DNA of 64,000 nucleotides from a virus. The stretch spans positions 8,254 to 72,253 of the IMG/VR virus record IMGVR_UViG_3300032334_001950; one strand, written 5' to 3'. Below are positions 1,866-62,028 of this stretch, piece after piece. Every line of letters starts with the position of its first letter. Position 1 is the stretch's first letter. The position numbers and the translations under genes are program-made. Below the pieces are notes generated by a model that saw only the letters and a program-made list of their open reading frames with translations, was not told where the DNA came from and ran no database searches.

Positions 1866-2393
1866 TTAAGTTGATTCTTCTAATCCTTTACGTATAATGG
1901 CCCATTCTTTTGGTGTTGGCCACCAGCCACCTTCATGTTTGTTTAACAATTCCAATGCTTGTTCTTTGTTGGTAAGCACAGGAGGTTTCCAATCATGAGT
2001 ATGCAACCAAGGCATGTTTTCTTGAACAGAACTCCAGCGAATTGGTACTATATAACCGTACAAAACACTTTGGATATGTACATGCCCATGTCTGTTACCA
2101 TCTTTTTCAGTAGGCTTTCTATCTGTAATCCATGGGCATGACTCCCACCATGCAACACTTGGATATTCATCATCCTTAGTTGGTTCAATTGTTTCTAACG
2201 GTAATATTTCTACAACATCACGAAAATTTTCTTCTTTATTAATAAAATAATACCCATCATCTGTATAATTACGCGAGCCAGCTTCGTGAGGATAACAACA
2301 AGTTCCCATAAATTTTGTTTGATATTCAACAATTTCTCCAGTGCGAAGACGTACCTTCTGCCCTGGCACACAAGTGTTCAAGTTAACAGTCAT
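1866..2393 (-). CDS. hypothetical phage protein (modular)
   Basis: 175 aa, AT-rich; C-terminal KEQALELL...IIRKGLEE module shared with 14799-15131. Confidence 0.7.
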   Translation of the reverse strand: MTVNLNTCVPGQKVRLRTGEIVEYQTKFMGTCCYPHEAGSRNYTDDGYYFINKEENFRDVVEILPLETIEPTKDDEYPSVAWWESCPWITDRKPTEKDGNRHGHVHIQSVLYGYIVPIRWSSVQENMPWLHTHDWKPPVLTNKEQALELLNKHEGGWWPTPKEWAIIRKGLEEST

Positions 2394-2444
2394 GATTGTT
2401 AATGCGATGGTAAATGAATCAGAATAAAAACTAAATCAATCATT

Positions 2445-3035
2445 TCATATTGTTTTTCTGCGTTCGTAAACCAGCGAATACGATTGCACCAATTGCGCTT
2501 GCCCTGGTGCCCCCGGAGCATCAGCAATCAAGTCGGAACGCAACCGATCTTTATCAGGTAGTTTCTCTTGCTTGACCTCCAGCACATGGCCATCGCGGAT
2601 CCTGGTAACAGTTGTCACTTTTTCCAGGCCATATTCCTGTTGGTCCTCTTCAGCCCATAGCTGCCAGTTGTCCACCAACTTAGGCTTGGCGCGACGAATC
2701 ACAGCCTGATACTTGTTGCCCTTGATCTTGTTGTCAATCAACCCCTGCTGATAGACGTGCTTAATGATCTGCACAATCTTTTCTTTGTTGGATACCCACG
2801 CATCCTTGGCCTCTTTGATTTCATTTAACTCCTCTTCTAACATTTGAATGTTGCGATCACAGCTCTTAATCAGGTCTACGATCGCATCAAACTTAGATGC
2901 CTGGCGAGAAGTTAAAGCTGCGATGTACTGCTCCAATCGATCCTTTTCATCGTCGGTAACATCCGGTAATTCGGTTGTAAATTTGACGTTGACGAGAGAT
3001 TCAGAAAGTTGTTGGTAGGTTGTGGGGTCAGCCAT
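2445..3035 (-). CDS. Siphovirus Gp157-like coiled-coil protein
   Basis: Helical heptad-rich N-half and C-terminal PDKDRLRSDL...APGQAQLVQ motif. Confidence 0.6.
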   Translation of the reverse strand: MADPTTYQQLSESLVNVKFTTELPDVTDDEKDRLEQYIAALTSRQASKFDAIVDLIKSCDRNIQMLEEELNEIKEAKDAWVSNKEKIVQIIKHVYQQGLIDNKIKGNKYQAVIRRAKPKLVDNWQLWAEEDQQEYGLEKVTTVTRIRDGHVLEVKQEKLPDKDRLRSDLIADAPGAPGQAQLVQSYSLVYERRKTI

Positions 3036-3557
3036 GTTTTTGTGTAGTGTGGAAATTTTGTAGGGCGAGAGTGTCTGCCTACGATAAATTTACGATGCAG
3101 CCGAGGGGACTCTTCGTTTAATGCAACGTTCCTTGTTGCACCCCCATAACTTAAAAAAGATTAAGTTAACTGAGCAAACCAGTCATAGCAACGGATCTGC
3201 CGTTTACTTTAAAAAAGTACGTTTAAAAGCGTCCCACATATGATTAAGACGCTTTTCTCCTACATCAAAAGGACGATCAACTTTTTGAGCTTCTACTATC
3301 GAATAAATTTCATCTTGAATAATAGAGCGGAGAAAATCAATTTGCCTGTCAGTCATCAGATTGCTCAATAGTTGGAAGAGATGGACCAAGGCTTTCTAGC
3401 CAGCACAGCATGCACCAGTTACCTTCATAATTTTTAATGTTGCTGCTAATGTAGTGTTCATGTGTGCCGTGCTTAGAACACACAATTTGTTTTTTAGAAA
3501 CCTTGAAGTTTAAAAATTCAGTCATTTGATTGTGATGGTTTGTTTAAGATAAAAAAA

Positions 3558-33629: not shown

Positions 33630-35363
33630 ATGGGCGGTTCTCCTCCGGCTCCAACAATTATCCAGGCGCCACCGCCGCCGCCCGTTTCAACACAAAATAC
33701 ATCTACTCAGTCGTTACAAACACAGACGGCTCTAGATGAAATAAGCGGACTGCAACAACGATTAAATATGACGCTTGGTTCACAATTGGACCAAGCCAAT
33801 AATGCGTTTTTTACTGATCAAAATATCAGGCAAACGCAAGCAACTGGTGCCGAAGCACGCACAACTTTACAAACTCAAGGCGAACAGCAGCGCCTTGGTA
33901 TGCAAACGCAATACCAGGGAGAAGCTAATTTAGCTAATCTCCAAGGTCAGTATGCGCTTGCAGGTACCCAAACCCAGGTTGGTGGCCAAAGAGATGTAGC
34001 CAGTATTCAAGGTGCTTATGGCCTATCTCAAGCACAAACACAGGCCGAAGCACAAAAATCTGTTGCAGGTACGCAAGCTGGCGCACAAACAAAGACCGCT
34101 GAAATTGGGGCAGGTGCTCAACTAGGCACCGCGCAGATCTCGGGCCAATACGGCCTACAACAAGCACAAACTGCAGCAGAAGCTCAAAGGGCCGTTGCAG
34201 GAACACAAGCTGGCGCACAACTAGGTGTTGCAGGCATTACAGGGCAATATGGCCTTCAGCAAGCCCAGACCGGAGCAGAAGCACAAAAAGCGGTTGCTCA
34301 AACTGCGGCCGGTGCTCAACTAGGTACCGCGCAGATTTCGGGCCAGTATGGATTACAGCAAGCACAAACTGCAGCTGGAGCGCAACTAGGCGTCGCAGGA
34401 ATTCAAGGGCAATACGGCCTCCAACAAGCGCAGACTGGTGCCGAAGCGCAAAAGTCCGTTGCGCAAACCCAAGCCGGAGCCCAGGTAGAAAGCACCCGCA
34501 TGGCGGGACAATACGGTCTACAACAAGCCCAAACAGGAGCAGAAGCGCAGAAATCCGTTGCGCAAACGCAAGCCGGCGCTCAACTAGGTACCGCGCAAAT
34601 CTCAGGTCAGTACGGGCTACAACAAGCGCAGACTGGTGCGGAAGCACAGAAATCCGTTGCACAAACGCAAGCAGGTGCTCAACTAGGCACCGCGCAGATT
34701 TCTGGTCAGTACGGTCTACAGCAAGCCCAGACCGGAGCGGAGGCACAGAAATCTGTTGCGCAAACCCAAGCCGGAGCCCAGGTAGAAAGCACCCGTATGG
34801 CAGGACAATACGGCCTGGCAGAAGCCCAAACTGGCGCAGAAGCACAAAAGTCTGTCGCTCAAACCGGTGCGGAAGCACAGAAATCCGTTGCACAAACGCA
34901 AGCAGGTGCTCAAGTTGGAACCGCACAGGTCACGGGCCAATATGGTTTAGCACAAGCGCAAACCGGAGCAGAAGCCCAAAAAGCTGTTGCACAGACAGAG
35001 GCGAGCGCCCAGAAAGATGTGGCTAGCATCCAAGGTGGTTACGGTCTTCAACAAACACAAGCGCAAACGGAAGCGCAAAAAGCGGTCGCAACAACACAAG
35101 CAGGGGCTCAACTTGGTACCGCACAAATCTCGGGCCAGTATGGATTACAAAGCACACAGGCTCAAGCCGAAGCACAGAAAGCCGTTGCTGAAACAACAGG
35201 TAAGTATGGCGTAGAACAGACGCGGATGGCAGGCCAATACGGTGTTGCCCAGACCGCTGAAACTGGGGTCCAACAGCGCCTCACACAACAACAGCAACAA
35301 GCGTATGATAATTACAAAGCGCAACGTGATTACCAATGGTCGCAACGAGCCTACAAAGCGTAA
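33630..35363 (+). CDS. Gln/Ala-rich protein with 11/33-residue repeats (pilot- or tape-measure-like)
   Basis: Repeats of QAQTGAEAQKS-VAQTQAGAQLG-TAQISGQYGLQ. Confidence 0.75.
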   Translation: MGGSPPAPTIIQAPPPPPVSTQNTSTQSLQTQTALDEISGLQQRLNMTLGSQLDQANNAFFTDQNIRQTQATGAEARTTLQTQGEQQRLGMQTQYQGEANLANLQGQYALAGTQTQVGGQRDVASIQGAYGLSQAQTQAEAQKSVAGTQAGAQTKTAEIGAGAQLGTAQISGQYGLQQAQTAAEAQRAVAGTQAGAQLGVAGITGQYGLQQAQTGAEAQKAVAQTAAGAQLGTAQISGQYGLQQAQTAAGAQLGVAGIQGQYGLQQAQTGAEAQKSVAQTQAGAQVESTRMAGQYGLQQAQTGAEAQKSVAQTQAGAQLGTAQISGQYGLQQAQTGAEAQKSVAQTQAGAQLGTAQISGQYGLQQAQTGAEAQKSVAQTQAGAQVESTRMAGQYGLAEAQTGAEAQKSVAQTGAEAQKSVAQTQAGAQVGTAQVTGQYGLAQAQTGAEAQKAVAQTEASAQKDVASIQGGYGLQQTQAQTEAQKAVATTQAGAQLGTAQISGQYGLQSTQAQAEAQKAVAETTGKYGVEQTRMAGQYGVAQTAETGVQQRLTQQQQQAYDNYKAQRDYQWSQRAYKA

Positions 35364-35845
35364 CCAACTGGCTGGATAAACTAAGCGAGAAAGACAAAGA
35401 ATCTTTTTTTGCGTTCTGTAAACAAGTAAGTTCTCCGATACAAATGTACCTGTACTCCCGTTTCCTTGGGTTTACGGGTACCATTGTGGAGTGCCATGAT
35501 TGGGCCAAAGAAAATTACAAGAAGCGTAACTTTGCCGCCATTATGGAAGAAGAAATTGATGCCATGCAACAGGATATTGCAAAGTTGCGTGATGCCATTG
35601 ATATGGGCATGGTCAAGCAAGATATGGGAACCTCCCGTATTGCCATGCTTCAAAAAGAATTACGCGGCACCATTAAGCAATTAAACGATGAAAAGCACCT
35701 AACCGATAAGCAGGGATTGATCCTCGCTGGCGCAGACCGAGCATTGAGGGAAATGCTTTTAATCTTTCGTGATGATCCTATTGAAGGGCCCCTTCAAGAA
35801 GCATCCATGGCGGTGTGGACCAAAATCCTTCAAGAGGAATCCTAA
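35336..35845 (+). CDS. probable terminase small subunit
   Basis: Helical 169-aa protein directly upstream of TerL (synteny only). Confidence 0.5.
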   Translation: MVATSLQSVTNWLDKLSEKDKESFFAFCKQVSSPIQMYLYSRFLGFTGTIVECHDWAKENYKKRNFAAIMEEEIDAMQQDIAKLRDAIDMGMVKQDMGTSRIAMLQKELRGTIKQLNDEKHLTDKQGLILAGADRALREMLLIFRDDPIEGPLQEASMAVWTKILQEES

Positions 35846-35899: not shown

Positions 35900-37423
35900 G
35901 TGGCGGGCACAAGTCTCTACAGCGTTTACCGCAGGACTGCGCGTGCTGCAGCAAAACAACAAATTGTAAAGAAAACATCAGATGTAGATGTTGAAAGAGC
36001 AAGGACAGATTTTGCTTATTTTTGTGATGTTGTCGGGGACAAACCACCAGCGGCGCACCACAAGGAGTGGCATAAATACTTGTGTACAGGACAGGATACC
36101 GAATGCTTGATTGGTATAGGTGGCCCAAACGTAGACATACTTAGCCCCCGTGGGTCAGCAAAAAGTACCGTTACCGGCTTGTTCTGCGCTTGGACAATTG
36201 GTGTGCATGCACTACATCAAAAGCCGTTAAAAATCCTGTATATTTCGTACACAGTTGATGTTGCTCGCCCCAAAAGCGCTGCCATCAAGCGGATCATTGA
36301 AGAAAGCAAAACTTATAGAGAAATTTTTCCTATGGTAAAGATTGCCAAAGGAATCAACAGCAACGAATACTGGAGCATTGATTGGAAGTTTGCTGGCGTT
36401 AAATCCACAGGCGAAGAAGAATTTACACTATGCTGCGCAGGCCTAAAAGGTGCTGTTACCTCTAAACGTAGCCATTTATGCGTGATTGACGACATTTGTA
36501 AGTCCGCCGACGAAATAAAAAACCGCGAAATCCGATTGGCAATGGAGGATAACTGGAACTCTGTTATTACTCCCACTATGTTTGAAGGAGGCCGGGCAAT
36601 TTGTCTTGGCACTAGATTTCGCCATGATGATATGCACGGCACCACCTTCATCCCAGAAAAAGATTGGATTCAACTGGTGCAGTCAGCGATCATTGTGGAT
36701 GAGTCAGGAGAGGAATCATCCTACTGGCCAGAAATGTGGTCGCTGGAATACCTGCAAGACCGTCGTCGCCAGGCCCCAATCAGCTTTAGTTTTCAATACC
36801 AAAATCAAATTGTACAAACTAGCGAACTGTCCTTATCTCCTGATTTAATTGTCAAGGGGAAAATACCAACAGAATTTGATCGACTTGGTATCGGCGTAGA
36901 CCTATCTGCAGGTGTCCGGGAACGCAATGACTACAGCGTATTTGTCCTCGGTGGTCGTGTTGGCGACAAAGTGTATGTCATTGATTGCAAACGCATCCGG
37001 CTGATGGGCAACTTGGAGAAGCTGGAGGCAATGATGGAAATGATGTTTGAATGGGGCATCGTTTACAAAGAAGGCACCAAGTATATTCCAACAGGAACCA
37101 GCGTTGACGTGTGGTCCGAGGCCGTAGCTTATCAGGCATCCCTAGAAGCCGATTTCAAGCGTATTTGCCTTGTTGAACACGGCCTTTACAATGTTTTATG
37201 GCACCCGGTCAAAGGTTTTCGTGGAGACAAAGTAGCAAGATTCCGTGGCATCATGGGCCTATTTGAACAGCATAAGATCAAATTCAATAAATACCGTAAA
37301 TTCCAAGCGCTAACGGACGAAATCATCAACTTTGGGGTCAGCTCCCATGACGATACGGTGGATGCGTTAGTTTGGCTATGTAATGGCTTGATGGCCAGGG
37401 GTAAACTAGAACTGGAATATTAG
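35900..37423 (+). CDS. terL: terminase large subunit
   Basis: Walker A SPRGSAKS, Walker B CVIDD, GTRF motif, nuclease GVDLS...HDDTVDA. Confidence 0.93.
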   Translation: MAGTSLYSVYRRTARAAAKQQIVKKTSDVDVERARTDFAYFCDVVGDKPPAAHHKEWHKYLCTGQDTECLIGIGGPNVDILSPRGSAKSTVTGLFCAWTIGVHALHQKPLKILYISYTVDVARPKSAAIKRIIEESKTYREIFPMVKIAKGINSNEYWSIDWKFAGVKSTGEEEFTLCCAGLKGAVTSKRSHLCVIDDICKSADEIKNREIRLAMEDNWNSVITPTMFEGGRAICLGTRFRHDDMHGTTFIPEKDWIQLVQSAIIVDESGEESSYWPEMWSLEYLQDRRRQAPISFSFQYQNQIVQTSELSLSPDLIVKGKIPTEFDRLGIGVDLSAGVRERNDYSVFVLGGRVGDKVYVIDCKRIRLMGNLEKLEAMMEMMFEWGIVYKEGTKYIPTGTSVDVWSEAVAYQASLEADFKRICLVEHGLYNVLWHPVKGFRGDKVARFRGIMGLFEQHKIKFNKYRKFQALTDEIINFGVSSHDDTVDALVWLCNGLMARGKLELEY

Positions 37424-40628: not shown

Positions 40629-41551
40629 ATGCGCCCACAACGTGGTGGCCAACAGCCGCAGGGTTATCAAAACGTTACTCAGGCCCCTGCTGGTTACATG
40701 CAGTCAATGGGGCAACAGCCTGGTGGGGGCGCAGCTCATATGGCTGCACAATATGGCGCCCCAGGGGGCGGCATTCTGGGCCAGGTTTCACAATTCCTAG
40801 CTCAACCCATCGCTGCAGCACAGCTTGGCGCTTACGGTCAAACAAATTCTCCCTCAGCAGGGAATGCTGTTAGTTACGCAAATACTGCGCACGATCCTGC
40901 ACTGCAGCGGATGTCTGGCCCTAGCAATCAAGGCATCTCTTTGACAAACGCGGGGGCGGCACCTCCGGGCGGCCCAGCTGGAGCCGTACCTATTATGGGG
41001 CAAGGCGGCGTCATGCCCGATAACCTACAAGCGGGTTACTTGCACCTCAACATGCCAGGTTCCCCGCTGGGCTCTATGGGCCTACTCTCAAATAATGCAA
41101 CCCGTCGAGCCGAGATTGTTCAGGATGCTATCTTAAGCAACCAACAACAATATATGATGGGGGCAATGGCGCCTCATGGTCCCCTACCTATAACTCAAAT
41201 GCAACAGCAAATGATGATGCAACAACAAATGGCCGCACGAGGGCAGCGTCGATGAATACCGACAAAGCAAAAGCTGCCAGGGATAAAGCAAAAATTGCAT
41301 CTGGCAAAAAAGCCCCGCAGAAGAAGGCAACCACCCCAACTGCAGCGGCAGCAGAAAAGCATCCGGAAGTGGCTGCAGCACTTGCACGCAATGCACTTTT
41401 ATCTGGTGGTATTGCGCCAGAAAGTGCTGGCATTGGCCTTGGTCATTCTGCCGACCTTCAACCCGCAGATGGTGTAGTCAACCCATTCCATAGGATGGGG
41501 CCGATCAATCCGAACACCTATAATCCCGGCAACGTGATCGGCGGTTTCTGA
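40629..41551 (+). CDS. two coupled low-complexity proteins (40629-41255, 41252-41551)
   Basis: ATGA overlap; one is G/Q/M-rich, the other K/A-rich. Confidence 0.6.
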
Positions 41552-41584
41552 TTTTCTTATTAACAGGCGTAAGTAAGCCCCTGC

Positions 41585-41715
41585 TATAATTTTTGCAATG
41601 GGACGAAAGTTCCAGGCCAGTAATGGCGCGAACCTAGACAACTAGATTTAAGTCCATTACGTCCTGGATCTTTTGGGTCCAGGTGTCAGCTAAACCCTTA
41701 CGCTGAATTACCAAC
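41585..41715 (+). promoter_or_regulatory. capsid-gene promoter and structured 5' leader
   Basis: TATAAT 41585-90, then four hairpins before ATG 41716. Confidence 0.55.
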
Positions 41716-43983
41716 ATGTTTATTGATAATGACTTTCCTAAGCTGTTAGGTGCGGAGCTTTATCGCCCCCACCCGGCTTACATCGTCGAAATGGCCGCAG
41801 AACCGGTTGAATAACAGCCGCCTTTTTGAGTAATCAAAAAGTGATAACCCGGTGAATTGCTGGAAACCCTTCTAAAAGAATTGAACCCTACAACGTAATC
41901 AGTAATGATAAGCGTGATAGGTTGAAAAGTTTCAATTGTCGGGCAATCAGCAGCCAAGCTTCCTAGGAATAGGTGGAAGGTTCAACGACTAGGGTACACG
42001 ATCCAGAACGGATTATGAAACCCATTAGCGCCGGGGCTCCCAAAATTGAATGTAATTTTTAAATTTACGTTCAATGGCAAAATCAGAATTCTGGTAAATA
42101 GCTTGTATTGCCTTGGCATCTTTTTTGTATCCGGGCAAATGAAACAAGTTGCTACCATTTTTGGTAAATTCTGATTTGATCGGCAACTCTACGCTTGATA
42201 TTAATTTGATCCATGTTTGGAGTTGTACAGCAAATTTGATTGACGCGGTGGTGATTTTAAAGCGGCGATCTGTTACAGAACCGTCGCCATCCCAAGCCCC
42301 ACGCAAAAAATGAGGCACTAAGTTTTCTTGCAGTGTTGTCGTGATCTCTAAAGTTTTAGATTTATTGGGTAAAATACCCAATTTCATCAAATCTTTAACC
42401 AAGGCAACTCTACTTAAAACCAATGACTTTTGTGGTAATGATTTTTTACCACGTATTGTTGAAATCTTGGTTTGCAATTTTGGGGCATTTGAGCCCAGCT
42501 CGTTGCGAAATCTTTCAAGAATTAAACAATCCTCTTCTTTTAATGCGATGCGAGCAGCCGTCAATCTAGGATTAATATTTCCATCGGTTGCCAATAGACC
42601 AAGAAAATAAGCCTTTCCTTCTGTATCAATTTTTTCAAAATAACGCTCGTTGTAATTGAAAAAAGAGTAAGTTTCGCCGGCTTTATTTTTTCTAAGCCCC
42701 GTCTGCTCAAAAAAAGATAGAAGGTTGAATTTTTTTCTGGCATTGTAAAAAGCAACCATTGATATATTTAGTTCTTTTGCTGCATCAGCATCAGACATCG
42801 TAGCAGAAAGTTCTGCTACCACTTCAAATGAAAGATTTAAGCGATTGTGCCGAGCCATGGGGAGCGTGATATAGTCTGTGCCCCACCGATGACAAAGGTG
42901 GGGAACAATGGATTGGGAAGCTCAATCCTAGCACGTGTTGTTCATGACTTCACCAAACAGCCTGGCCAAACCGTTCAGCTGGACCGGTACCGTTTCTGGG
43001 GTAACCCCGGTACCAAGGCCAACCGTGAGCGTACCCAGGACCAGACCATTGGTACCGCTAACAGCCGTTCCATTGTGAAGGACAAAGTTCTGGTGTCTCT
43101 CCGCGAGTACACTGGTCCTGCCGACCCGAACAATGCCAACGCTCCCAGCACCTTTAAGATTGCTCGGGAAACGCTGATGACCGCTCAGCGCTTGCTGCTG
43201 GACACCGGGAACCTTAACATGTTCCACCAGTCCATTGGTTCGCTGACCCTGCTGGATGACTACCGCCGCTGGCGTGATCGCGTGCTGCTGGACGAACTGT
43301 ATAAGTCCTTCTCACGCGGCCAAGCCTCCGATACCCAAGGTGGTTACTACTACCCCAACAACCACACCAACTCCAGTGGTACCGTTAGCACCTACACTGC
43401 TACCGAATATGCTTCTGAGCGTTACAAGTTTAACGTGAAGAGCGACCTTCTGGAAGTTGTCAAAGGTCTGCGTAAGCGTAACGTTCCCGTCTTCCAAGAT
43501 GGTTACTACCGCTGTATTGCTGATCCCTCCTTCATGAAGGATCTGCGTGCGGACCAAGGCTTCCGTGAAGTTGCGCGTTACCCTGGCATGGGCCAAGGCA
43601 ACCCCATGATGGGCGCCATGGGTCCCAACCAAGCCATCTACGGTGGTGGTCAATACGGCCAAGCTGCTTTTGTGGCTGGTGAACCGATCATGCCTACCGG
43701 CTTTGTGTTTGAAGGTGTTCGTTTCTTCGAATCGACCAACTTCACCAACCTGACCGTCACCTGCGACATCAACGATGGCGCTGGTTCCACGACCCACACC
43801 ACGCCTCCCGGCCTGTTCTTCGGTCCCCAGGCTGTTGGTATCGGTATCGGCGGCCCCAATGCTCAAGTCCTCATTAACAACAACGACGACTTCAGCCGCT
43901 TTATCATCCTGATTTGGCAGCTGTACGCCGGTTTTGCTAACCTGAACAAGGACTTCTGCACCGTCGCATTCACCATCGTTTGA
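41716..43983 (+). CDS. major capsid protein, split: join(41716..41807,42936..43983), 379 aa
   Basis: Exon 1 MFIDNDFPKLLGAELYRPHPAYIVEMAAEP joins in frame to give EPVVVHDFTKQPGQ; strongly biased codon usage; G..FEGVRFFES and FFGPQAVG motifs; position after portal/scaffold. Confidence 0.88.
41808..42935 (+). mobile_element. self-splicing group I intron (1128 nt)
   Basis: P1 with U.G at the 5' splice site; P AATTGCTGGAAA 41855, Q AATCAGCAGC 41945, R GTTCAACGACTA 41980, S TGATATAGTC 42867; P3, P7, P8, P9; terminal G 42935; 8-bp P10. Confidence 0.93.
42025..42858 (-). CDS. intron-encoded double-motif LAGLIDADG homing endonuclease (antisense orientation)
   Basis: AYFLGLLATDG and HFLRGAWDGDG motifs; AT-rich; lies in the P8 loop. 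Confidence 0.9.
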   Translation of the reverse strand: MARHNRLNLSFEVVAELSATMSDADAAKELNISMVAFYNARKKFNLLSFFEQTGLRKNKAGETYSFFNYNERYFEKIDTEGKAYFLGLLATDGNINPRLTAARIALKEEDCLILERFRNELGSNAPKLQTKISTIRGKKSLPQKSLVLSRVALVKDLMKLGILPNKSKTLEITTTLQENLVPHFLRGAWDGDGSVTDRRFKITTASIKFAVQLQTWIKLISSVELPIKSEFTKNGSNLFHLPGYKKDAKAIQAIYQNSDFAIERKFKNYIQFWEPRR

Positions 43984-44000
43984 TAGGAGGTAACTAACTC

Positions 44001-44855
44001 ATGGCTCTCTACAAAACTAATGCTGGCGCCGTACTTTACCCCGGCGATCAGATTAACCGCCTGTCTGGCTACAACAACGAAGGTGTCTTTGGTTGGCCTG
44101 GTATTGAGGCGTATGAAATCGTTGGTTACGTGCCCATCTCAAGCAGCACGGCAGCCAAGACTTTCACGACCATTACCGTCCCTTCACCCGATCGTCGTAC
44201 TGATGACCGCGTGCGTGACAACCTGAGTGCGATCACTGTGCCTGCTTCCAGCAGCCAGCCTTCGTACATCTATGGTGCTTCTATTGCTATTGCTCAGGAC
44301 ATTCCTTCTGGCTCTGGTAATGGCGCCCTGCCTGGCTTCCCTGGCGTGCCTGTGACTGCTGATCTCGTTGGCACCACTAGCGACCTGCTGCTGTTTGGCC
44401 CTGATAACTCCGGCGTCCCCGCTGGTGTTTCTACCGCCAACAAAGCACTTGGTATCGGTAACGCTGTTGCCTACCTGACTGTTGCTTCTAGCGCCCTGAC
44501 CCAGGGTACTAATGCGCTGTCCAACGGTAACGCCACCGCCGGCTCGCTGCCTTTCGCCAGCTCCGTGACCTCTGGTGGTATTCTTGCTGCGGATTTCTAC
44601 AGCTCGATGTTCTACAAGGTCACCGCTGATACCACCTTCGGTGTGTACAGCGTGCTGACGGCTGCCGCCACGACCGCCAACGGTTCCGGCGTTAACATCA
44701 GCGCTGCCAACGTAACCGCCAACAAAACCGGTTACATTGTGTGCCGCATCAACTATCTGCGTCCTGCCGATGCTGCTAGCTGGACTGACATCCAGGGCTT
44801 CATCGACTTCAAGTCGCAGATTGGTGGTGATGACGGTGCCGGCGTGAACGGCTGA
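44001..44855 (+). CDS. abundant virion structural protein (minor capsid or decoration candidate)
   Basis: Strong SD AGGAGGT, capsid-like codon bias, immediately after the MCP. Confidence 0.65.
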   Translation: MALYKTNAGAVLYPGDQINRLSGYNNEGVFGWPGIEAYEIVGYVPISSSTAAKTFTTITVPSPDRRTDDRVRDNLSAITVPASSSQPSYIYGASIAIAQDIPSGSGNGALPGFPGVPVTADLVGTTSDLLLFGPDNSGVPAGVSTANKALGIGNAVAYLTVASSALTQGTNALSNGNATAGSLPFASSVTSGGILAADFYSSMFYKVTADTTFGVYSVLTAAATTANGSGVNISAANVTANKTGYIVCRINYLRPADAASWTDIQGFIDFKSQIGGDDGAGVNG

Positions 44856-59070: not shown

Positions 59071-62028
59071 GTGCCGGCAACTTCGTTCCAACACATGTTC
59101 CCGGATGGGAGCAATCGCTTTTATAACCCTCTTCCGATTGCCCCTAGCGAAACGCTTAATGATCCTGTTGGAAAGTTGCGTGTTTCAAATCCGCAAGCAC
59201 TGATCGATACGGACTTTGAGTATAGCACCCAGTCAACCAAGTGGGAAACACTAAATCTGCTTAACAACAGGCCAAGTGCTTTCTACGACGTTACTGCACC
59301 GCTTACTATTACCGATGTAACCACTGCCGGAACACGTGTTGTTACCGTTGTTACCACTTCCCCACCGGCGGTAGGCACTCCTGTTTTTATTCAGAACACC
59401 ACTAACCCCTTGGCAAATGGTTGGTTCCTTGTAAACACCGTAAGTGCCGGGACAAACTTTACTTATGTAGCAACTAATATAATTCCTGCTTCCCCTGGTT
59501 CCATTTATGACAGCACTAAAACTTATGTTTTTAGCGGCAGTTTTTATACGGGGTCAGGTATTCCGGTAGCTACTGGATCCGGTGCAGCATTTACAAACTC
59601 AGGTACTACAGTTACGGGCACTACTACTAATGCCCATGGTTTGACCGTAGGCGATGCGATTTACGTCGTTGGGACAACTGCTACGACCAACCCGCCCAAC
59701 GGTTCTTGGATTGTGCAGACAACTCCCACCAGCAATACTTTTACATTTGTAGTAATTAATACTCCCACTGGCGCCAACATTACTGCTGCGGGTGGTGCAA
59801 CGGCTACCCTCTATCCTCGTCCTTACGGTAGCGCTGTTCACCGTTCCTTTGATGGAGGTGTTGCTTTTTCGGCGGGTTACCCCTATACAGGTAATCAGTT
59901 GATTCGCCAAACTCGTCGTTACTTCCGTTACCAATCAGGTAAAGGAATGCAATTCAGCACGGGTACATGTTTAAAGCCGGCATTTAACGTTGATAGCATT
60001 ACCTCTTCAGGTACAACGGTTACTGTTAATCTTAAAAATCCTCACTATTTAAACGGTAATTTTGCGGCAAACACCGGTATTGCAGTAAGCGCTTCTGCTG
60101 GTGTAGCCTTTACCAATGATGCTGCATTTAACAACGGTTTAACCATAACCTGTAATACGACCAACAACCATGGATTTGTTGTTGGAGATACTATTTTTGT
60201 TACCGGCACCACTTCAACAACCAATCCCCCCAATGGTACTTGGGTAATCAAAACCATCGTAAGTGCGACTTCATTCCAATTCAACGTTACCAGTGCGCCT
60301 ACCGGGGCTATTACAGCAGCAGCAGGCGCTACTTCAACGCTGTATCCACAACCAGGTGGGCCTTATGTCGTTGTTTCCGGTTGTAACGAGTCTGCTTATA
60401 ACGGCACATTTTTGGTGCAAACTGTAACAACTGATTTAAGCTTTACCTATACCGCCGCATCTACTCCAAGTGCAGCGACTGCCACAGGTTTCCCAATCAA
60501 TGTAAATCCTGCTAGCTGGTACGGCGCCAAAAACCGTATTGGCTTATTTGATGAGCAAAACGGATTTTTCTTTGAATTTGACGGTCAAACCTTATATGCC
60601 GTTAAACGCAGTTCTACTGCGCAAATTTCAGGCACAATTGCTGTCAATTCTGGCAGTTCCTCTGTAACGGGAACAAGCACACTATTTTCGCAACAATTAA
60701 TCCCTGGAGATTACATTGTAATTCGCGGCATGACATATGTTGTGCAATCAATTACAAGTGATACCGCTTTAGTTATCTACCCAGAATACCGTTCAACCAC
60801 TAACGTTTCAAACTGTGTAACTAGCAAAAGAATTGAGGAGCGTTACCCGCAGTCTCAGTGGAATATTGATCGTTGTGATGGCGGTGGTTCCACAGGGTTC
60901 AACCTAGATCTGACCAAGATGCAGATGCTTTATATCGATTACGCTTGGTACGGTGCGGGTGCTATTCGATTTGGTTTTAAAGATCAAAAGGGTGAGATTA
61001 TTTATTGTCACCGGATTCCCAATAGCAACCGCAATACGGAAGCTTACATGCGGTCGGGTAATATTTGTTCCCGATATGAAGCCAACACATTTGTACCTAT
61101 TACCACACTGGCGGCTACCCTTTCTAGTGCGGAAGTTAACACGCTAACCGTAGCAAGCACAGCGGGATTCCCTCAATCCGGTACCCTTGCTGTTACAGCC
61201 TCAGGTAATACTGGTGCTGCAATTGAGTATATTCGTTACAACAGCAAAACTTCAACAACTTTTACAGGATTGAAACGGGCAATTGTTGACATCAGTGGCC
61301 CAGGTAATTTAACAGGTGGGGGCGGTAACTCCTCTGCGCAAACATTTACATATAGCGCAACGGCTCCTATTCAAGTCTCTGCGTTTGCGGTGCAAACGGC
61401 TGCAACTCTGTCCCACTGGGGTTCCGCCGTGATTATGGATGGGCGGTATGACGATGATAAATCGTATATCTTCCAAGCGGGTTTAGGCACGCCTGTTACT
61501 AATATTGCAGCATCAGCAAGTGCTGCACTGTTGAGTATTCGTTTGGCGCCTAGTGTAGATTCTGGTATTACCGGATCTCTTGGTGCCCGCGATCTTATTA
61601 ATCGTATGCAGTTGACTTTGCGGCAAATGGATATTGTTGCGACGGGAGCCGCTGCTATTTTCCGAGTAGAATTAATCCTAAACGGTAAATTGGGGGGCAC
61701 AGGTGCTGGAGCATTTGCTGCTGCAGGTGGCTCAAGTTTGGCACAGGTTGCAACGCACTCTACCTCGGGAGCTACTACCATATCTGGGGGTGAAAGCATC
61801 TTGTCTTTCTTTGTGTACACACCTAATGTTGTTCAGCAAGATTTAATCTTGGTGCGTGACTTAGGGAATAGCATTCTTGGTGGGGGGACAAACACCACTG
61901 TTCCTACCAGTGCAGTCAACTTGTACCCGGACGGTCCAGATGTAGTGACAATTAAAGTAACTAATGTCAGTTCTGTAGCAACAAACTCGCTCCTTGCCCG
62001 TATTTCCTGGACTGAAGCACAAGCATAA
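59071..62028 (+). CDS. large virion structural protein with repeated beta-modules
   Basis: KLRVSNPQALIDTDFEY, RQTRRYFRYQSGK, several HGL.VGD modules. Confidence 0.7.
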   Translation: MPATSFQHMFPDGSNRFYNPLPIAPSETLNDPVGKLRVSNPQALIDTDFEYSTQSTKWETLNLLNNRPSAFYDVTAPLTITDVTTAGTRVVTVVTTSPPAVGTPVFIQNTTNPLANGWFLVNTVSAGTNFTYVATNIIPASPGSIYDSTKTYVFSGSFYTGSGIPVATGSGAAFTNSGTTVTGTTTNAHGLTVGDAIYVVGTTATTNPPNGSWIVQTTPTSNTFTFVVINTPTGANITAAGGATATLYPRPYGSAVHRSFDGGVAFSAGYPYTGNQLIRQTRRYFRYQSGKGMQFSTGTCLKPAFNVDSITSSGTTVTVNLKNPHYLNGNFAANTGIAVSASAGVAFTNDAAFNNGLTITCNTTNNHGFVVGDTIFVTGTTSTTNPPNGTWVIKTIVSATSFQFNVTSAPTGAITAAAGATSTLYPQPGGPYVVVSGCNESAYNGTFLVQTVTTDLSFTYTAASTPSAATATGFPINVNPASWYGAKNRIGLFDEQNGFFFEFDGQTLYAVKRSSTAQISGTIAVNSGSSSVTGTSTLFSQQLIPGDYIVIRGMTYVVQSITSDTALVIYPEYRSTTNVSNCVTSKRIEERYPQSQWNIDRCDGGGSTGFNLDLTKMQMLYIDYAWYGAGAIRFGFKDQKGEIIYCHRIPNSNRNTEAYMRSGNICSRYEANTFVPITTLAATLSSAEVNTLTVASTAGFPQSGTLAVTASGNTGAAIEYIRYNSKTSTTFTGLKRAIVDISGPGNLTGGGGNSSAQTFTYSATAPIQVSAFAVQTAATLSHWGSAVIMDGRYDDDKSYIFQAGLGTPVTNIAASASAALLSIRLAPSVDSGITGSLGARDLINRMQLTLRQMDIVATGAAAIFRVELILNGKLGGTGAGAFAAAGGSSLAQVATHSTSGATTISGGESILSFFVYTPNVVQQDLILVRDLGNSILGGGTNTTVPTSAVNLYPDGPDVVTIKVTNVSSVATNSLLARISWTEAQA

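Follow-up and report, generated by a model that had tools for sequence, protein, structure and literature searches.

The stretch of DNA analysed here, which we call the window, comprises 64,000 nucleotides and corresponds to bases 8254-72253 of a linear IMG/VR virus record of 72,253 bases (IMGVR_UViG_3300032334_001950), the completeness of which is estimated at 84%. It is part of the genome of an uncultured S-EIV1-like cyanophage; the nearest named genome, that of Synechococcus phage S-EIVl (KJ410740), displays 72% nucleotide identity across the capsid region, and there the matches to the two exons described below adjoin. On the plus strand of the window, surrounded by a head-morphogenesis block, lies a gene for the major capsid protein that is interrupted after the second base of its codon 31 by an insertion with the anatomy of a group I intron. 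Most of this intron is filled by a gene for a LAGLIDADG homing endonuclease, which is antisense both to the intron and to the capsid gene. The coordinates are collected in Table 1.

The identity of the insertion and its limits can be established with some precision. The Rfam family RF00028 (Intron_gpI) matches positions 41799-42101 with 53.6 bits (E = 8e-11, model positions 1-253), the gathering score being 50 bits, and no other Rfam family exceeds its threshold, whether in the window or in the complete record. In G+C content the insertion (0.34-0.42) falls below exon 2 (0.50-0.60). Once 41808-42935 is removed, the two exons make up 379 codons plus a stop, with ...GAACCGGT|TGTTGTTCAT... as the predicted sequence of the ligated exons. 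The same messenger would come from cuts after 41807, 41808 or 41809; only the pair 41807/42936 puts a U ahead of the 5′ splice site and a G at the very end of the intron, and both the pair U41807.G41817 and G42935 are invariant in the window and in 16 related loci, which we describe further on.

The uninterrupted form of the gene is common. A search with exon 2 alone retrieved 837 proteins, the best of which, P0004, is 379 residues long, 98% identical and intron-less: it begins MFIDNDFPKLLGAELYRPHPAYIVEMAAEPVVVHDFTKQ, that is, exon 1, one valine and exon 2 with nothing between, so that it reads ...MAAEPVVVHDFTKQ... unbroken and the junction ...AAEPVVVHDF... is contiguous. Its residues 1-30 are identical to the translation of exon 1. 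Among related capsid loci, taken as the best 80 of more than 597 matched stretches of viral contigs, the exon-1 peptide lies exactly one codon upstream of exon 2 in 77; L004 and L021 also read across the junction, though the contig ends nearby. L058, a contig that begins at the junction, allows no verdict, and 79 of the 80 are thus intron-less at this site. The in-frame TAA that stands five nucleotides into the intron would halt ribosomes reading on from exon 1 and keep them out of the ribozyme core. An open frame that starts at GTG 42847 (42847-43983, 378 residues) is a likely automatic mis-start of the capsid gene; the 30 residues which this start replaces are nearly invariant in the 20 homologues aligned. 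As far as sequence can tell, we are dealing with a real group I intron that has its splice sites at 41807/42936 and that is predicted to splice.

That the host gene codes for the major capsid protein is supported by several lines of evidence. Its product matches phrog_1357 ('major head protein') at 1e-18. A Pfam search of the capsid protein itself gave no family, and its distant homologues match Phage_capsid_2 (3 of 43), Phage_capsid_3 (two) and P22 coat (one). An AlphaFold2 model of P0004 built on a 43-sequence alignment reached a mean pLDDT of 76.3, a first one, from 20 close homologues, having been unusable (mean 51.4). With the better model, Foldseek retrieved the solved capsid proteins of cyanophages Pan3 and P-SCSP1u, of Ralstonia phage GP4 and of N4 (E down to 5.5e-13, TM 0.54-0.61), and the predicted fold is of the HK97 type. 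A comparison of the capsid profile and of the endonuclease with the sequences of the PDB yielded nothing useful.

Table 1. Features of the interrupted capsid gene and its surroundings, in window coordinates
Feature	Position	Strand	Evidence or remark
Large terminase	35900-37423	+	phrog_38, 7e-76
Virion structural protein, 762 aa	37695-39983	+	phrog_20475
Capsid exon 1: ATG, 30 codons and first 2 nt of codon 31 (92 nt)	41716-41807	+	translation MFIDNDFPKLLGAELYRPHPAYIVEMAAEP
P1 hairpin: CGGUUG 41804-41809 with CAGCCG 41815-41820	41804-41820	+	U41807.G41817 wobble marks the 5′ splice site
Group I intron, 1128 nt	41808-42935	+	RF00028; intron-less homologues; covariation over 15 copies; G+C drop
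P10, 5′ part of guide: GAAUAACA	41809-41816	+	pairs with exon-2 UGUUGUUC, 42936-42943
In-frame TAA in P1 loop, 5 nt into intron	41812-41814	+	sequence
P2, 8 bp, GUAA loop	41822-41841	+	3/8 pairs change on both sides
P3 5′ strand CCCGGUG, partner 42029-42035	41848-41854	+	7 pairs invariant in 15 copies
P4-P5-P5a/b-P6-P6a domain	41858-41981	+	P4 invariant; P5a/b and P6a with compensatory changes
P7 5′ strand CGACUA, partner 42872-42878	41986-41991	+	6 pairs invariant in 15 copies
Extra P7.1/P7.2-like hairpin between P7 and P3′	41992-42023	+	11 pairs, 4 changing on both sides
LAGLIDADG homing endonuclease gene, 277 aa	42025-42858	-	PF14528, phrog_4645, two motifs
P3 3′ strand CGCCGGG	42029-42035	+	inside last codons of the minus-strand endonuclease gene
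P8 5′ strand GCUCCC, partner 42860-42865	42036-42041	+	6/6 pairs; 1 pair changes on both sides
Fortuitous open frame that begins at GTG 42847, crosses P9 and enters exon 2	42847-42935	+	list of open reading frames
P8 3′ strand GGGAGC	42860-42865	+	just upstream of the endonuclease ATG (42856-42858) on the minus strand
P7 3′ strand UAGUC(U)G	42872-42878	+	covariation alignment
P9 hairpin CCCCACC/GGUGGGG	42881-42903	+	7/7 pairs change on both sides; 100% of cells paired
P9.1-like hairpin GGAUUGG/CUCAAUCC	42910-42928	+	paired in the window
Terminal G of the intron (omega-G)	42935	+	...CA[C/U]G end in the window and all 16 related loci
Capsid exon 2: last nt of codon 31, 348 codons and stop (1048 nt)	42936-43983	+	homologues; capsid family match

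The fold of the ribozyme was followed helix by helix in an alignment of 15 distinct copies, the window's included (two of the 16 related contigs are exact duplicates and were dropped). The proposed structure counts 96 pairs, in P1, P2, P3, P4, P5 with its extension, P6/P6a, the P7 pseudoknot, a P7.1/P7.2-like hairpin, P8, P9 and P9.1, and 95.9% of the cells of the alignment form standard pairs. Changes on both sides occur in 33 pairs, against a mean of 19.3 in shuffled alignments, none of the 500 shuffles reaching 33; when the 3′ partners are slid by one to three columns, at most 10 pairs change on both sides and pairing drops to 33-44%. P1 (the six pairs of which are invariant in the 15 copies), P3, P4 and P7 are uninformative in this respect because they never vary, and it is P2, the P5a/b extension of P5, P6a, the P7.1-like hairpin, P8 and P9 that carry the covariation: G41992-C42023, for example, has become A-U in the related contig L083. 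P7, in which U42877 is bulged, forms a pseudoknot with P3, and it is this helix that holds the guanosine-binding site in group I introns. In the window all eight pairs of P10 are formed, at -8.0 kcal/mol, which none of 200 shuffles of the exon segment matched; eight pairs are also found in L204, five to seven in all but one of the other copies, and the helix is weaker in the divergent copies (three to six pairs).

Introns of Twort and of Bacillus, Staphylococcus, Streptococcus, Lactococcus, Aeromonas, Vibrio and other phages share 71-76% identity with the P3-P7 core, a value that reaches up to about 90% when shorter pieces are compared. The account of PMC3428280 names as a criterion of subgroup IA2 two additional helices, P7.1 and P7.2, in the segment from P7 to P3′, and the compound hairpin at 41992-42023 sits at that very place; together with the identity of the core, its position in the fold points to an intron of phage IA type.

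The antisense gene is woven into this structure. In the proposed fold it occupies the 818-nucleotide loop of P8: its ATG abuts the 3′ strand of that helix, and its last eleven codons pass through two pairing strands, 5′ of P8 and 3′ of P3, before the stop codon, which falls in the joining segment. The product matches PF14528 over its second motif only (1e-6, 29.4 bits for a cut-off of 22.5) and phrog_4645 ('endonuclease') over residues 46-272 (1.9e-40). It carries two LAGLIDADG motifs, ...YFLGLLATDGN... and ...FLRGAWDGDGS..., which end in D92 and D192; the acidic residues in this position have a catalytic role, and both are invariant in the three proteins aligned (62-95% identity). The open reading frame is intact (270-277 residues) in 14 of 15 copies, and all 14 end in WEPRR, also invariant in the three aligned proteins; conservation of these residues, where the end of the gene overlaps the 3′ strand of P3, fits a double constraint. 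Between the window and L083 the gene differs at 55 of 834 nucleotides, distributed 11/4/40 over the three codon positions, with 41 synonymous and 13 non-synonymous codon differences and a dN/dS of 0.08; for the remaining pairs in which dS is not saturated the ratio is 0.11-0.46, its maximum coming from a comparison with the broken copy. The gene is conserved and under purifying selection, and its product is predicted to cleave DNA. The broken copy is that of contig L219 (intron at 2427-3555, minus strand), in which the gene is frameshifted, with a longest frame of 110 residues, and the ribozyme still scores 58.8 bits: this is a decaying endonuclease in a still-intact intron.

The original prediction, drawn from the letters of the window, had read much of this anatomy correctly. 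The covariance model bears out a group I intron, and the family match, the structural model and the distant Pfam matches bear out its capsid host; P1 as CGGTTG/CAGCCG with its U.G pair at T41807, the terminal G42935, P10 from 41809-16, helices P2, P3, P7, P8 and P9, the TAA at 41812-14 and the false start at 42847 were all found where they had been placed; the spliced ...EPVVVHDF of a 379-residue protein is what intron-less homologues contain, P0004 being of just that length, and the exon-1 peptide, the absence of which from homologous capsids had been named as a possible refutation, is present there. What had been overlooked is the minus-strand gene that fills most of the intron.

We can now turn to the relatives of this element. 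A profile made of three endonuclease sequences retrieved relatives of the enzyme from 16 viral contigs. All 16 have the gene in antisense orientation, inserted between the two capsid exons at the codon that is split in the window, and the boundaries read ...GGU|UGA (5′) and ...CA[C/U]G|UGU (3′). Exon 1 is intact and in phase in each of them (87-100% amino-acid identity). Compared with the window, their capsids are 67-87% and their endonucleases 55-95% identical, and RF00028 matches at the same site in the 12 loci that were scanned (12/12, E ≤ 1.4e-6), four of them above the gathering score. Metagenome contigs searched with the endonuclease protein and with a 24-nucleotide word of the intron gave no match; a wider group I core motif is present in at least 118 viral contigs and is too general to trace this particular intron.

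Among close relatives the intron is now present, now absent. The capsids nearest to that of the window lack it (P0004, 98%; L003, 96%), and one at 84% has it (L083/L204). Between the window and L083, identity is 92/92 nucleotides in exon 1, 208/217 in the 5′ part of the ribozyme, 779/834 in the endonuclease gene and 68/77 in the 3′ part of the ribozyme, falling to 130/159 in the proximal and 704/872 in the distal part of exon 2: in short, 88-96% for the intron against 81-82% for exon 2. An exon 1 that is 100% identical in nucleotides is found, besides the window's own locus, in L083 only, the median over the 80 loci being 83%, and it looks like a co-converted 5′ flank. L216 and L219 have the most window-like capsids of the intron carriers (86-87%), yet the most distant endonucleases (55-56%).

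Intron-bearing and intron-less alleles are also found side by side. The data are here contigs, not reads, of public DNA runs from one study, of which run X1 is possibly the window's own source. Runs X2 and X3 have contigs that join exon 1 directly to exon 2, without intron; one such joint, from 41804 to 42940 with 7 substituted letters, belongs to a contig of depth 307, against 34 for the intron-bearing contig of the same run. In X3 and X4 other contigs skip roughly 42040-42930, the endonuclease part, one of them with 74 other letters between, and these look like an endonuclease-less version of the same intron.

A few short proteins hint at further copies. P0233, P0240, P0250 and P0273 begin with the capsid exon-1 peptide, and directly after ...EPV the sequence either ends or becomes unrelated (EPVD..., EPVE*). 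The source of P0233 is the intron-bearing contig L203; the other three suggest further intron-bearing alleles in more divergent capsids, and a back-translated pattern of the read-through peptide of P0240 gave no match.

We may now try to understand what this element does. Very probably it is a selfish mobile group I intron, endowed with an antisense LAGLIDADG gene, that splices itself from the capsid transcript and is dispensable to the phage. The steps of splicing can be proposed from the anatomy together with the known mechanism of the group I family. The late capsid transcript would fold, P1 presenting U41807 to a free guanosine bound in P7, and cleavage would follow; P10, pairing 41809-41816 with 42936-42943, would then align exon 2, so that cleavage after G42935 would be accompanied by ligation of the exons, the product being the messenger of the conserved 379-residue capsid protein. 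It is because the intron would splice itself out that its insertion could be tolerated. The endonuclease, for its part, would be made from a minus-strand transcript, and in a mixed infection its target would be a capsid allele that lacks the intron, cleaved at the insertion site or close to it; repair templated by the intron-bearing genome would then bring in the intron together with flanking exon sequence, which is homing. An intron-less majority, intron-less alleles in the same study and an endonuclease gene, taken together, fit a dispensable selfish element. Since the capsid pre-mRNA cannot serve to translate a gene of the other strand, expression of the endonuclease must be uncoupled from late capsid transcription, which may be the very point of the antisense arrangement.

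A number of observations weigh against this account or temper it. No RNA run on record among those listed contains the stretch 41500-43400, and splicing itself is for this reason inferred. P10 is weak in L216, with four pairs at -1.1 kcal/mol that 74 of 200 shuffles equal or better, and in P9.1 only 50.5% of the cells are paired in the alignment as made; this latter figure is low because the register shifts between copies, and by eye every copy has a hairpin of its own in this region. The constancy of the site (16/16) is that of near relatives of the endonuclease, which is not a survey of all capsid introns. The 3′ exon has no long co-conversion tract, since the differences from L083 begin 10 nucleotides into exon 2, and general recombination between phages could yield the same patterns of identity, both between the window and L083 and in the cases of L216 and L219. 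In a scan of both strands of 41400-44100, no sigma-70-like promoter was found where 2.9 would be expected by chance, and no Shine-Dalgarno-like motif precedes the minus-strand ATG; we do not treat the empty promoter scan as evidence against expression of the endonuclease.

The junction itself must be read with similar care. The 8-mer CCGGTTGT stands across it in all 15 distinct intron-bearing alleles against none of 78 intron-less ones, the EPVVV peptide being the same in all, and natural synonymous variants of the intron-less junction include the GAGCCTGTTGTTGTC and GAACCAGTAGTCGTA types. Its presence in every intron allele is what selection for splicing and co-conversion would lead us to expect, because CGGU is required for the exon arm of P1 and UGUUGU for P10. 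It must be counted on the other side that intron-less alleles have CCG in 2 of 78 cases and GTT at codon 31 in 20 of 78: as CCG is rare there anyway, absence of the 8-mer from these alleles is no evidence of a sweep.

What remains to be weighed is whether the element, or part of it, is kept for some other reason. The endonuclease might be mainly a weapon of the phage, cutting the capsid gene of co-infecting intron-less S-EIV1-like phages so as to lower their yield, and be kept for the benefit of its carrier, a view that is compatible with homing. Both types of capsid allele are found in the DNA runs of one study, and selection has preserved the gene in 14 of 15 copies; furthermore, a phage intron endonuclease is reported, in the account given by PMC11620839, to aid competition between co-infecting phages. 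Yet purifying selection is equally expected of a purely selfish element that is still homing, and the broken copy in L219, as well as the contigs of X3 and X4 that apparently lack the endonuclease part, represent the decay which a selfish cycle predicts. We consider it unlikely that attack on competitors is the main function of the enzyme.

A bolder version would treat the antisense placement as a design by which this endonuclease family works when lodged in late structural genes. A dedicated promoter, inside the intron or just 3′ of it, would allow the endonuclease to be made early, uncoupled from the massive late transcription of the capsid gene, and to cut the intron-less capsid genes of co-infecting S-EIV1-like phages during DNA replication, with the double effect of spreading the intron and of crippling the capsid supply of the competitor. 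The antisense transcript might, in addition, pair with the capsid pre-mRNA and modulate splicing. We offer this design as a speculation with a small chance of being right.

Splicing of the capsid transcript could also be seen as a regulated step that times or gates the production of virions, and a 'timing checkpoint' of this kind had been put forward in the original prediction. It is true that the conserved form of the capsid requires splicing, and that the 20 aligned homologues show little or no variation at most residues of exon 1. The proposal is nevertheless without support, because the lineage overwhelmingly does without the intron: gating is not needed where 79 of 80 related capsid loci and the closest homologue, P0004, have none at the site, and intron-less alleles accompany intron-bearing ones in the same study. 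Moreover, the intron carries a conserved homing endonuclease gene and displays transfer-like patterns of identity, and no regulatory feature was found, all of which makes such a role very improbable. Least credible of all is an insertion that does not splice, leaving a defective genome or a protein made from GTG 42847 without exon 1: there is indeed an open frame from this GTG into exon 2, and no listed RNA run contains the stretch, but a dead insertion would not have kept its fold through compensatory changes in 15 copies from different samples, its exon 1 intact and in phase in 16 of 16 loci and nearly or fully invariant in homologues, and its splice-site U and G unvaried.

Known systems help in placing this selfish, dispensable intron. 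Among the best named relatives of the endonuclease retrieved by tblastn are the 'DOD' endonucleases of Staphylococcus Kayvirus and a LAGLIDADG endonuclease of a Streptomyces phage (32-36% identity). The Kayvirus proteins match at 32-34% over residues 68-267 (E down to 8e-18); like the protein of the window they are LAGLIDADG ('DOD') enzymes of family phrog_4645, and they are annotated as intron-encoded endonucleases, that of phage 812 lying in an intron of the recombinase gene, where ours is in a capsid gene. In Kayvirus the intron endonucleases reportedly lie in sense with the host gene. The psbA gene of cyanophage S-PM2 reportedly contains a group I intron, with a neighbouring free-standing endonuclease and an antisense RNA. 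It would share with the present case that a group I intron interrupts a cyanophage gene of high expression and that a homing endonuclease is associated with antisense transcription, and differ from it in that the endonuclease is beside the gene, not within the intron, and that the host gene is photosynthetic, not structural.

The closest precedent is found in mycobacteriophages. According to the account of Pope et al. (2013; PMC3706429), phage LittleE, of Cluster J, has an intron of about 820 bp in its major capsid gene, the splicing of which in vivo was demonstrated by RT-PCR (reverse transcription followed by polymerase chain reaction) and by N-terminal sequencing of the protein; it has a U and a G at the splice sites and a bottom-strand LAGLIDADG-like open reading frame, relatives of the phage are without the capsid intron, and sister phages have a related ORF-less intron in a tail gene. 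The same report cites a spliced intron in the capsid gene of Tuc2009. The window resembles LittleE, as there described, in having in the major capsid gene of a tailed phage an intron with a U before the 5′ splice site, a terminal G and a LAGLIDADG-type frame on the opposite strand. It differs in that LittleE is a temperate siphovirus of an actinobacterium, with a shorter intron which its authors call 'most likely group I', whereas we have here an Rfam model above its cut-off and covariation; the likeness is one of description. The rarity of capsid introns that the original prediction implied is, with these two cases in print, overstated.

Two further comparisons bear on the ribozyme and on the antisense gene. 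The IA2 introns of phages, as presented in PMC3428280 (Twort, SPO1-like Bacillus phages, td of T4, DNA polymerase of cyanophage Pf-WMP3), have a similar P3-P7 core and the extra hairpin between P7 and P3′, and likewise interrupt a conserved essential phage gene; unlike the one studied here, they are mostly found in genes of DNA metabolism and have HNH or GIY-YIG endonucleases on the same strand. Antisense homing endonuclease genes are described, as in PMC9548176, for group I introns of nuclear rDNA (for example at position L2066); the endonuclease gene is opposite to the ribozyme strand, as in the window, with the difference that these introns are eukaryotic, that their endonucleases are of the His-Cys box family and that expression involves spliceosomal introns. 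A literature search limited to titles and the openings of abstracts retrieved no description of introns in S-EIV1-like phages. There is thus precedent for the arrangement, and it is this phage lineage and its capsid gene that make up a setting for which that search found no description.

Other insertions exist in the same capsid gene of relatives. L083 has, at 2339-2574 on its minus strand, a second group I intron, without open reading frame (RF00028, 72.9 bits), placed inside the tyrosine codon of ...SLREY|TGPAD...; the first intron has a similar P3-P7 core, and the site of the second corresponds in the window to the space between 43108 and 43109, where the gene is uninterrupted. L216, with its capsid gene on the minus strand, has a third insertion, about 1.1 kb long (around 560-1665), at exon-2 residue 253/254, near 43695 of the window. 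This insertion has a group I match of 48.9 bits, just below the cut-off, and a two-motif LAGLIDADG frame of 284 residues (643-1497), again antisense to the capsid gene.

For the specialist, the intron is biologically tidy and unsurprising, and nothing is overturned, since spliced capsid introns with opposite-strand endonuclease genes were already known in mycobacteriophages. It is as a natural series that it is useful: the S-EIV1-like cyanophages would allow the life cycle of homing introns to be studied in an abundant environmental virus, in four states, namely intron-less, with an intact antisense endonuclease, with one broken endonuclease, and as derivatives apparently devoid of it, and the two further sites in the same capsid gene add to this series. 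A testable question is also raised: how and when is an endonuclease expressed if its gene lies opposite a late gene that is among the most strongly transcribed? There is finally a consequence for annotation, as automatic gene calls will start the capsid gene at 42847, or split it, and the same will hold for at least 16 related viral contigs.

Some minor observations complete this description. In contig L161 (270-3062), the group I core motif (2060-2116, plus strand) is directly followed by a minus-strand open reading frame for a phrog_4645 endonuclease of 299 residues, and a second such frame is found at 270-1085; the flanking frames match no phage family, a scan of the contig with Rfam gave no match above cut-off, and we possibly have there another antisense arrangement. 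In the window itself, the order of genes is large terminase, 762-residue virion structural protein, two small frames without family and then the interrupted capsid gene. The terminase frame covers just positions 253-708 of the 760-position phrog_38 profile, and a separate frame of 169 residues (35336-35845) precedes it. The two small frames (40629-41551) code for 208 residues, rich in Q, G and M, and for 99 residues; a family search with both gave no match, and judging by their position they could be scaffold or decoration proteins. Lastly, the GenBank record of Synechococcus phage S-EIVl (KJ410740.1, our L001) contains at 60860-61990 a full-length, uninterrupted capsid homologue (69% identity over 348 residues), annotated there as a minus-strand hypothetical protein and a short plus-strand one, so that the capsid gene of this phage seems to have gone unannotated.

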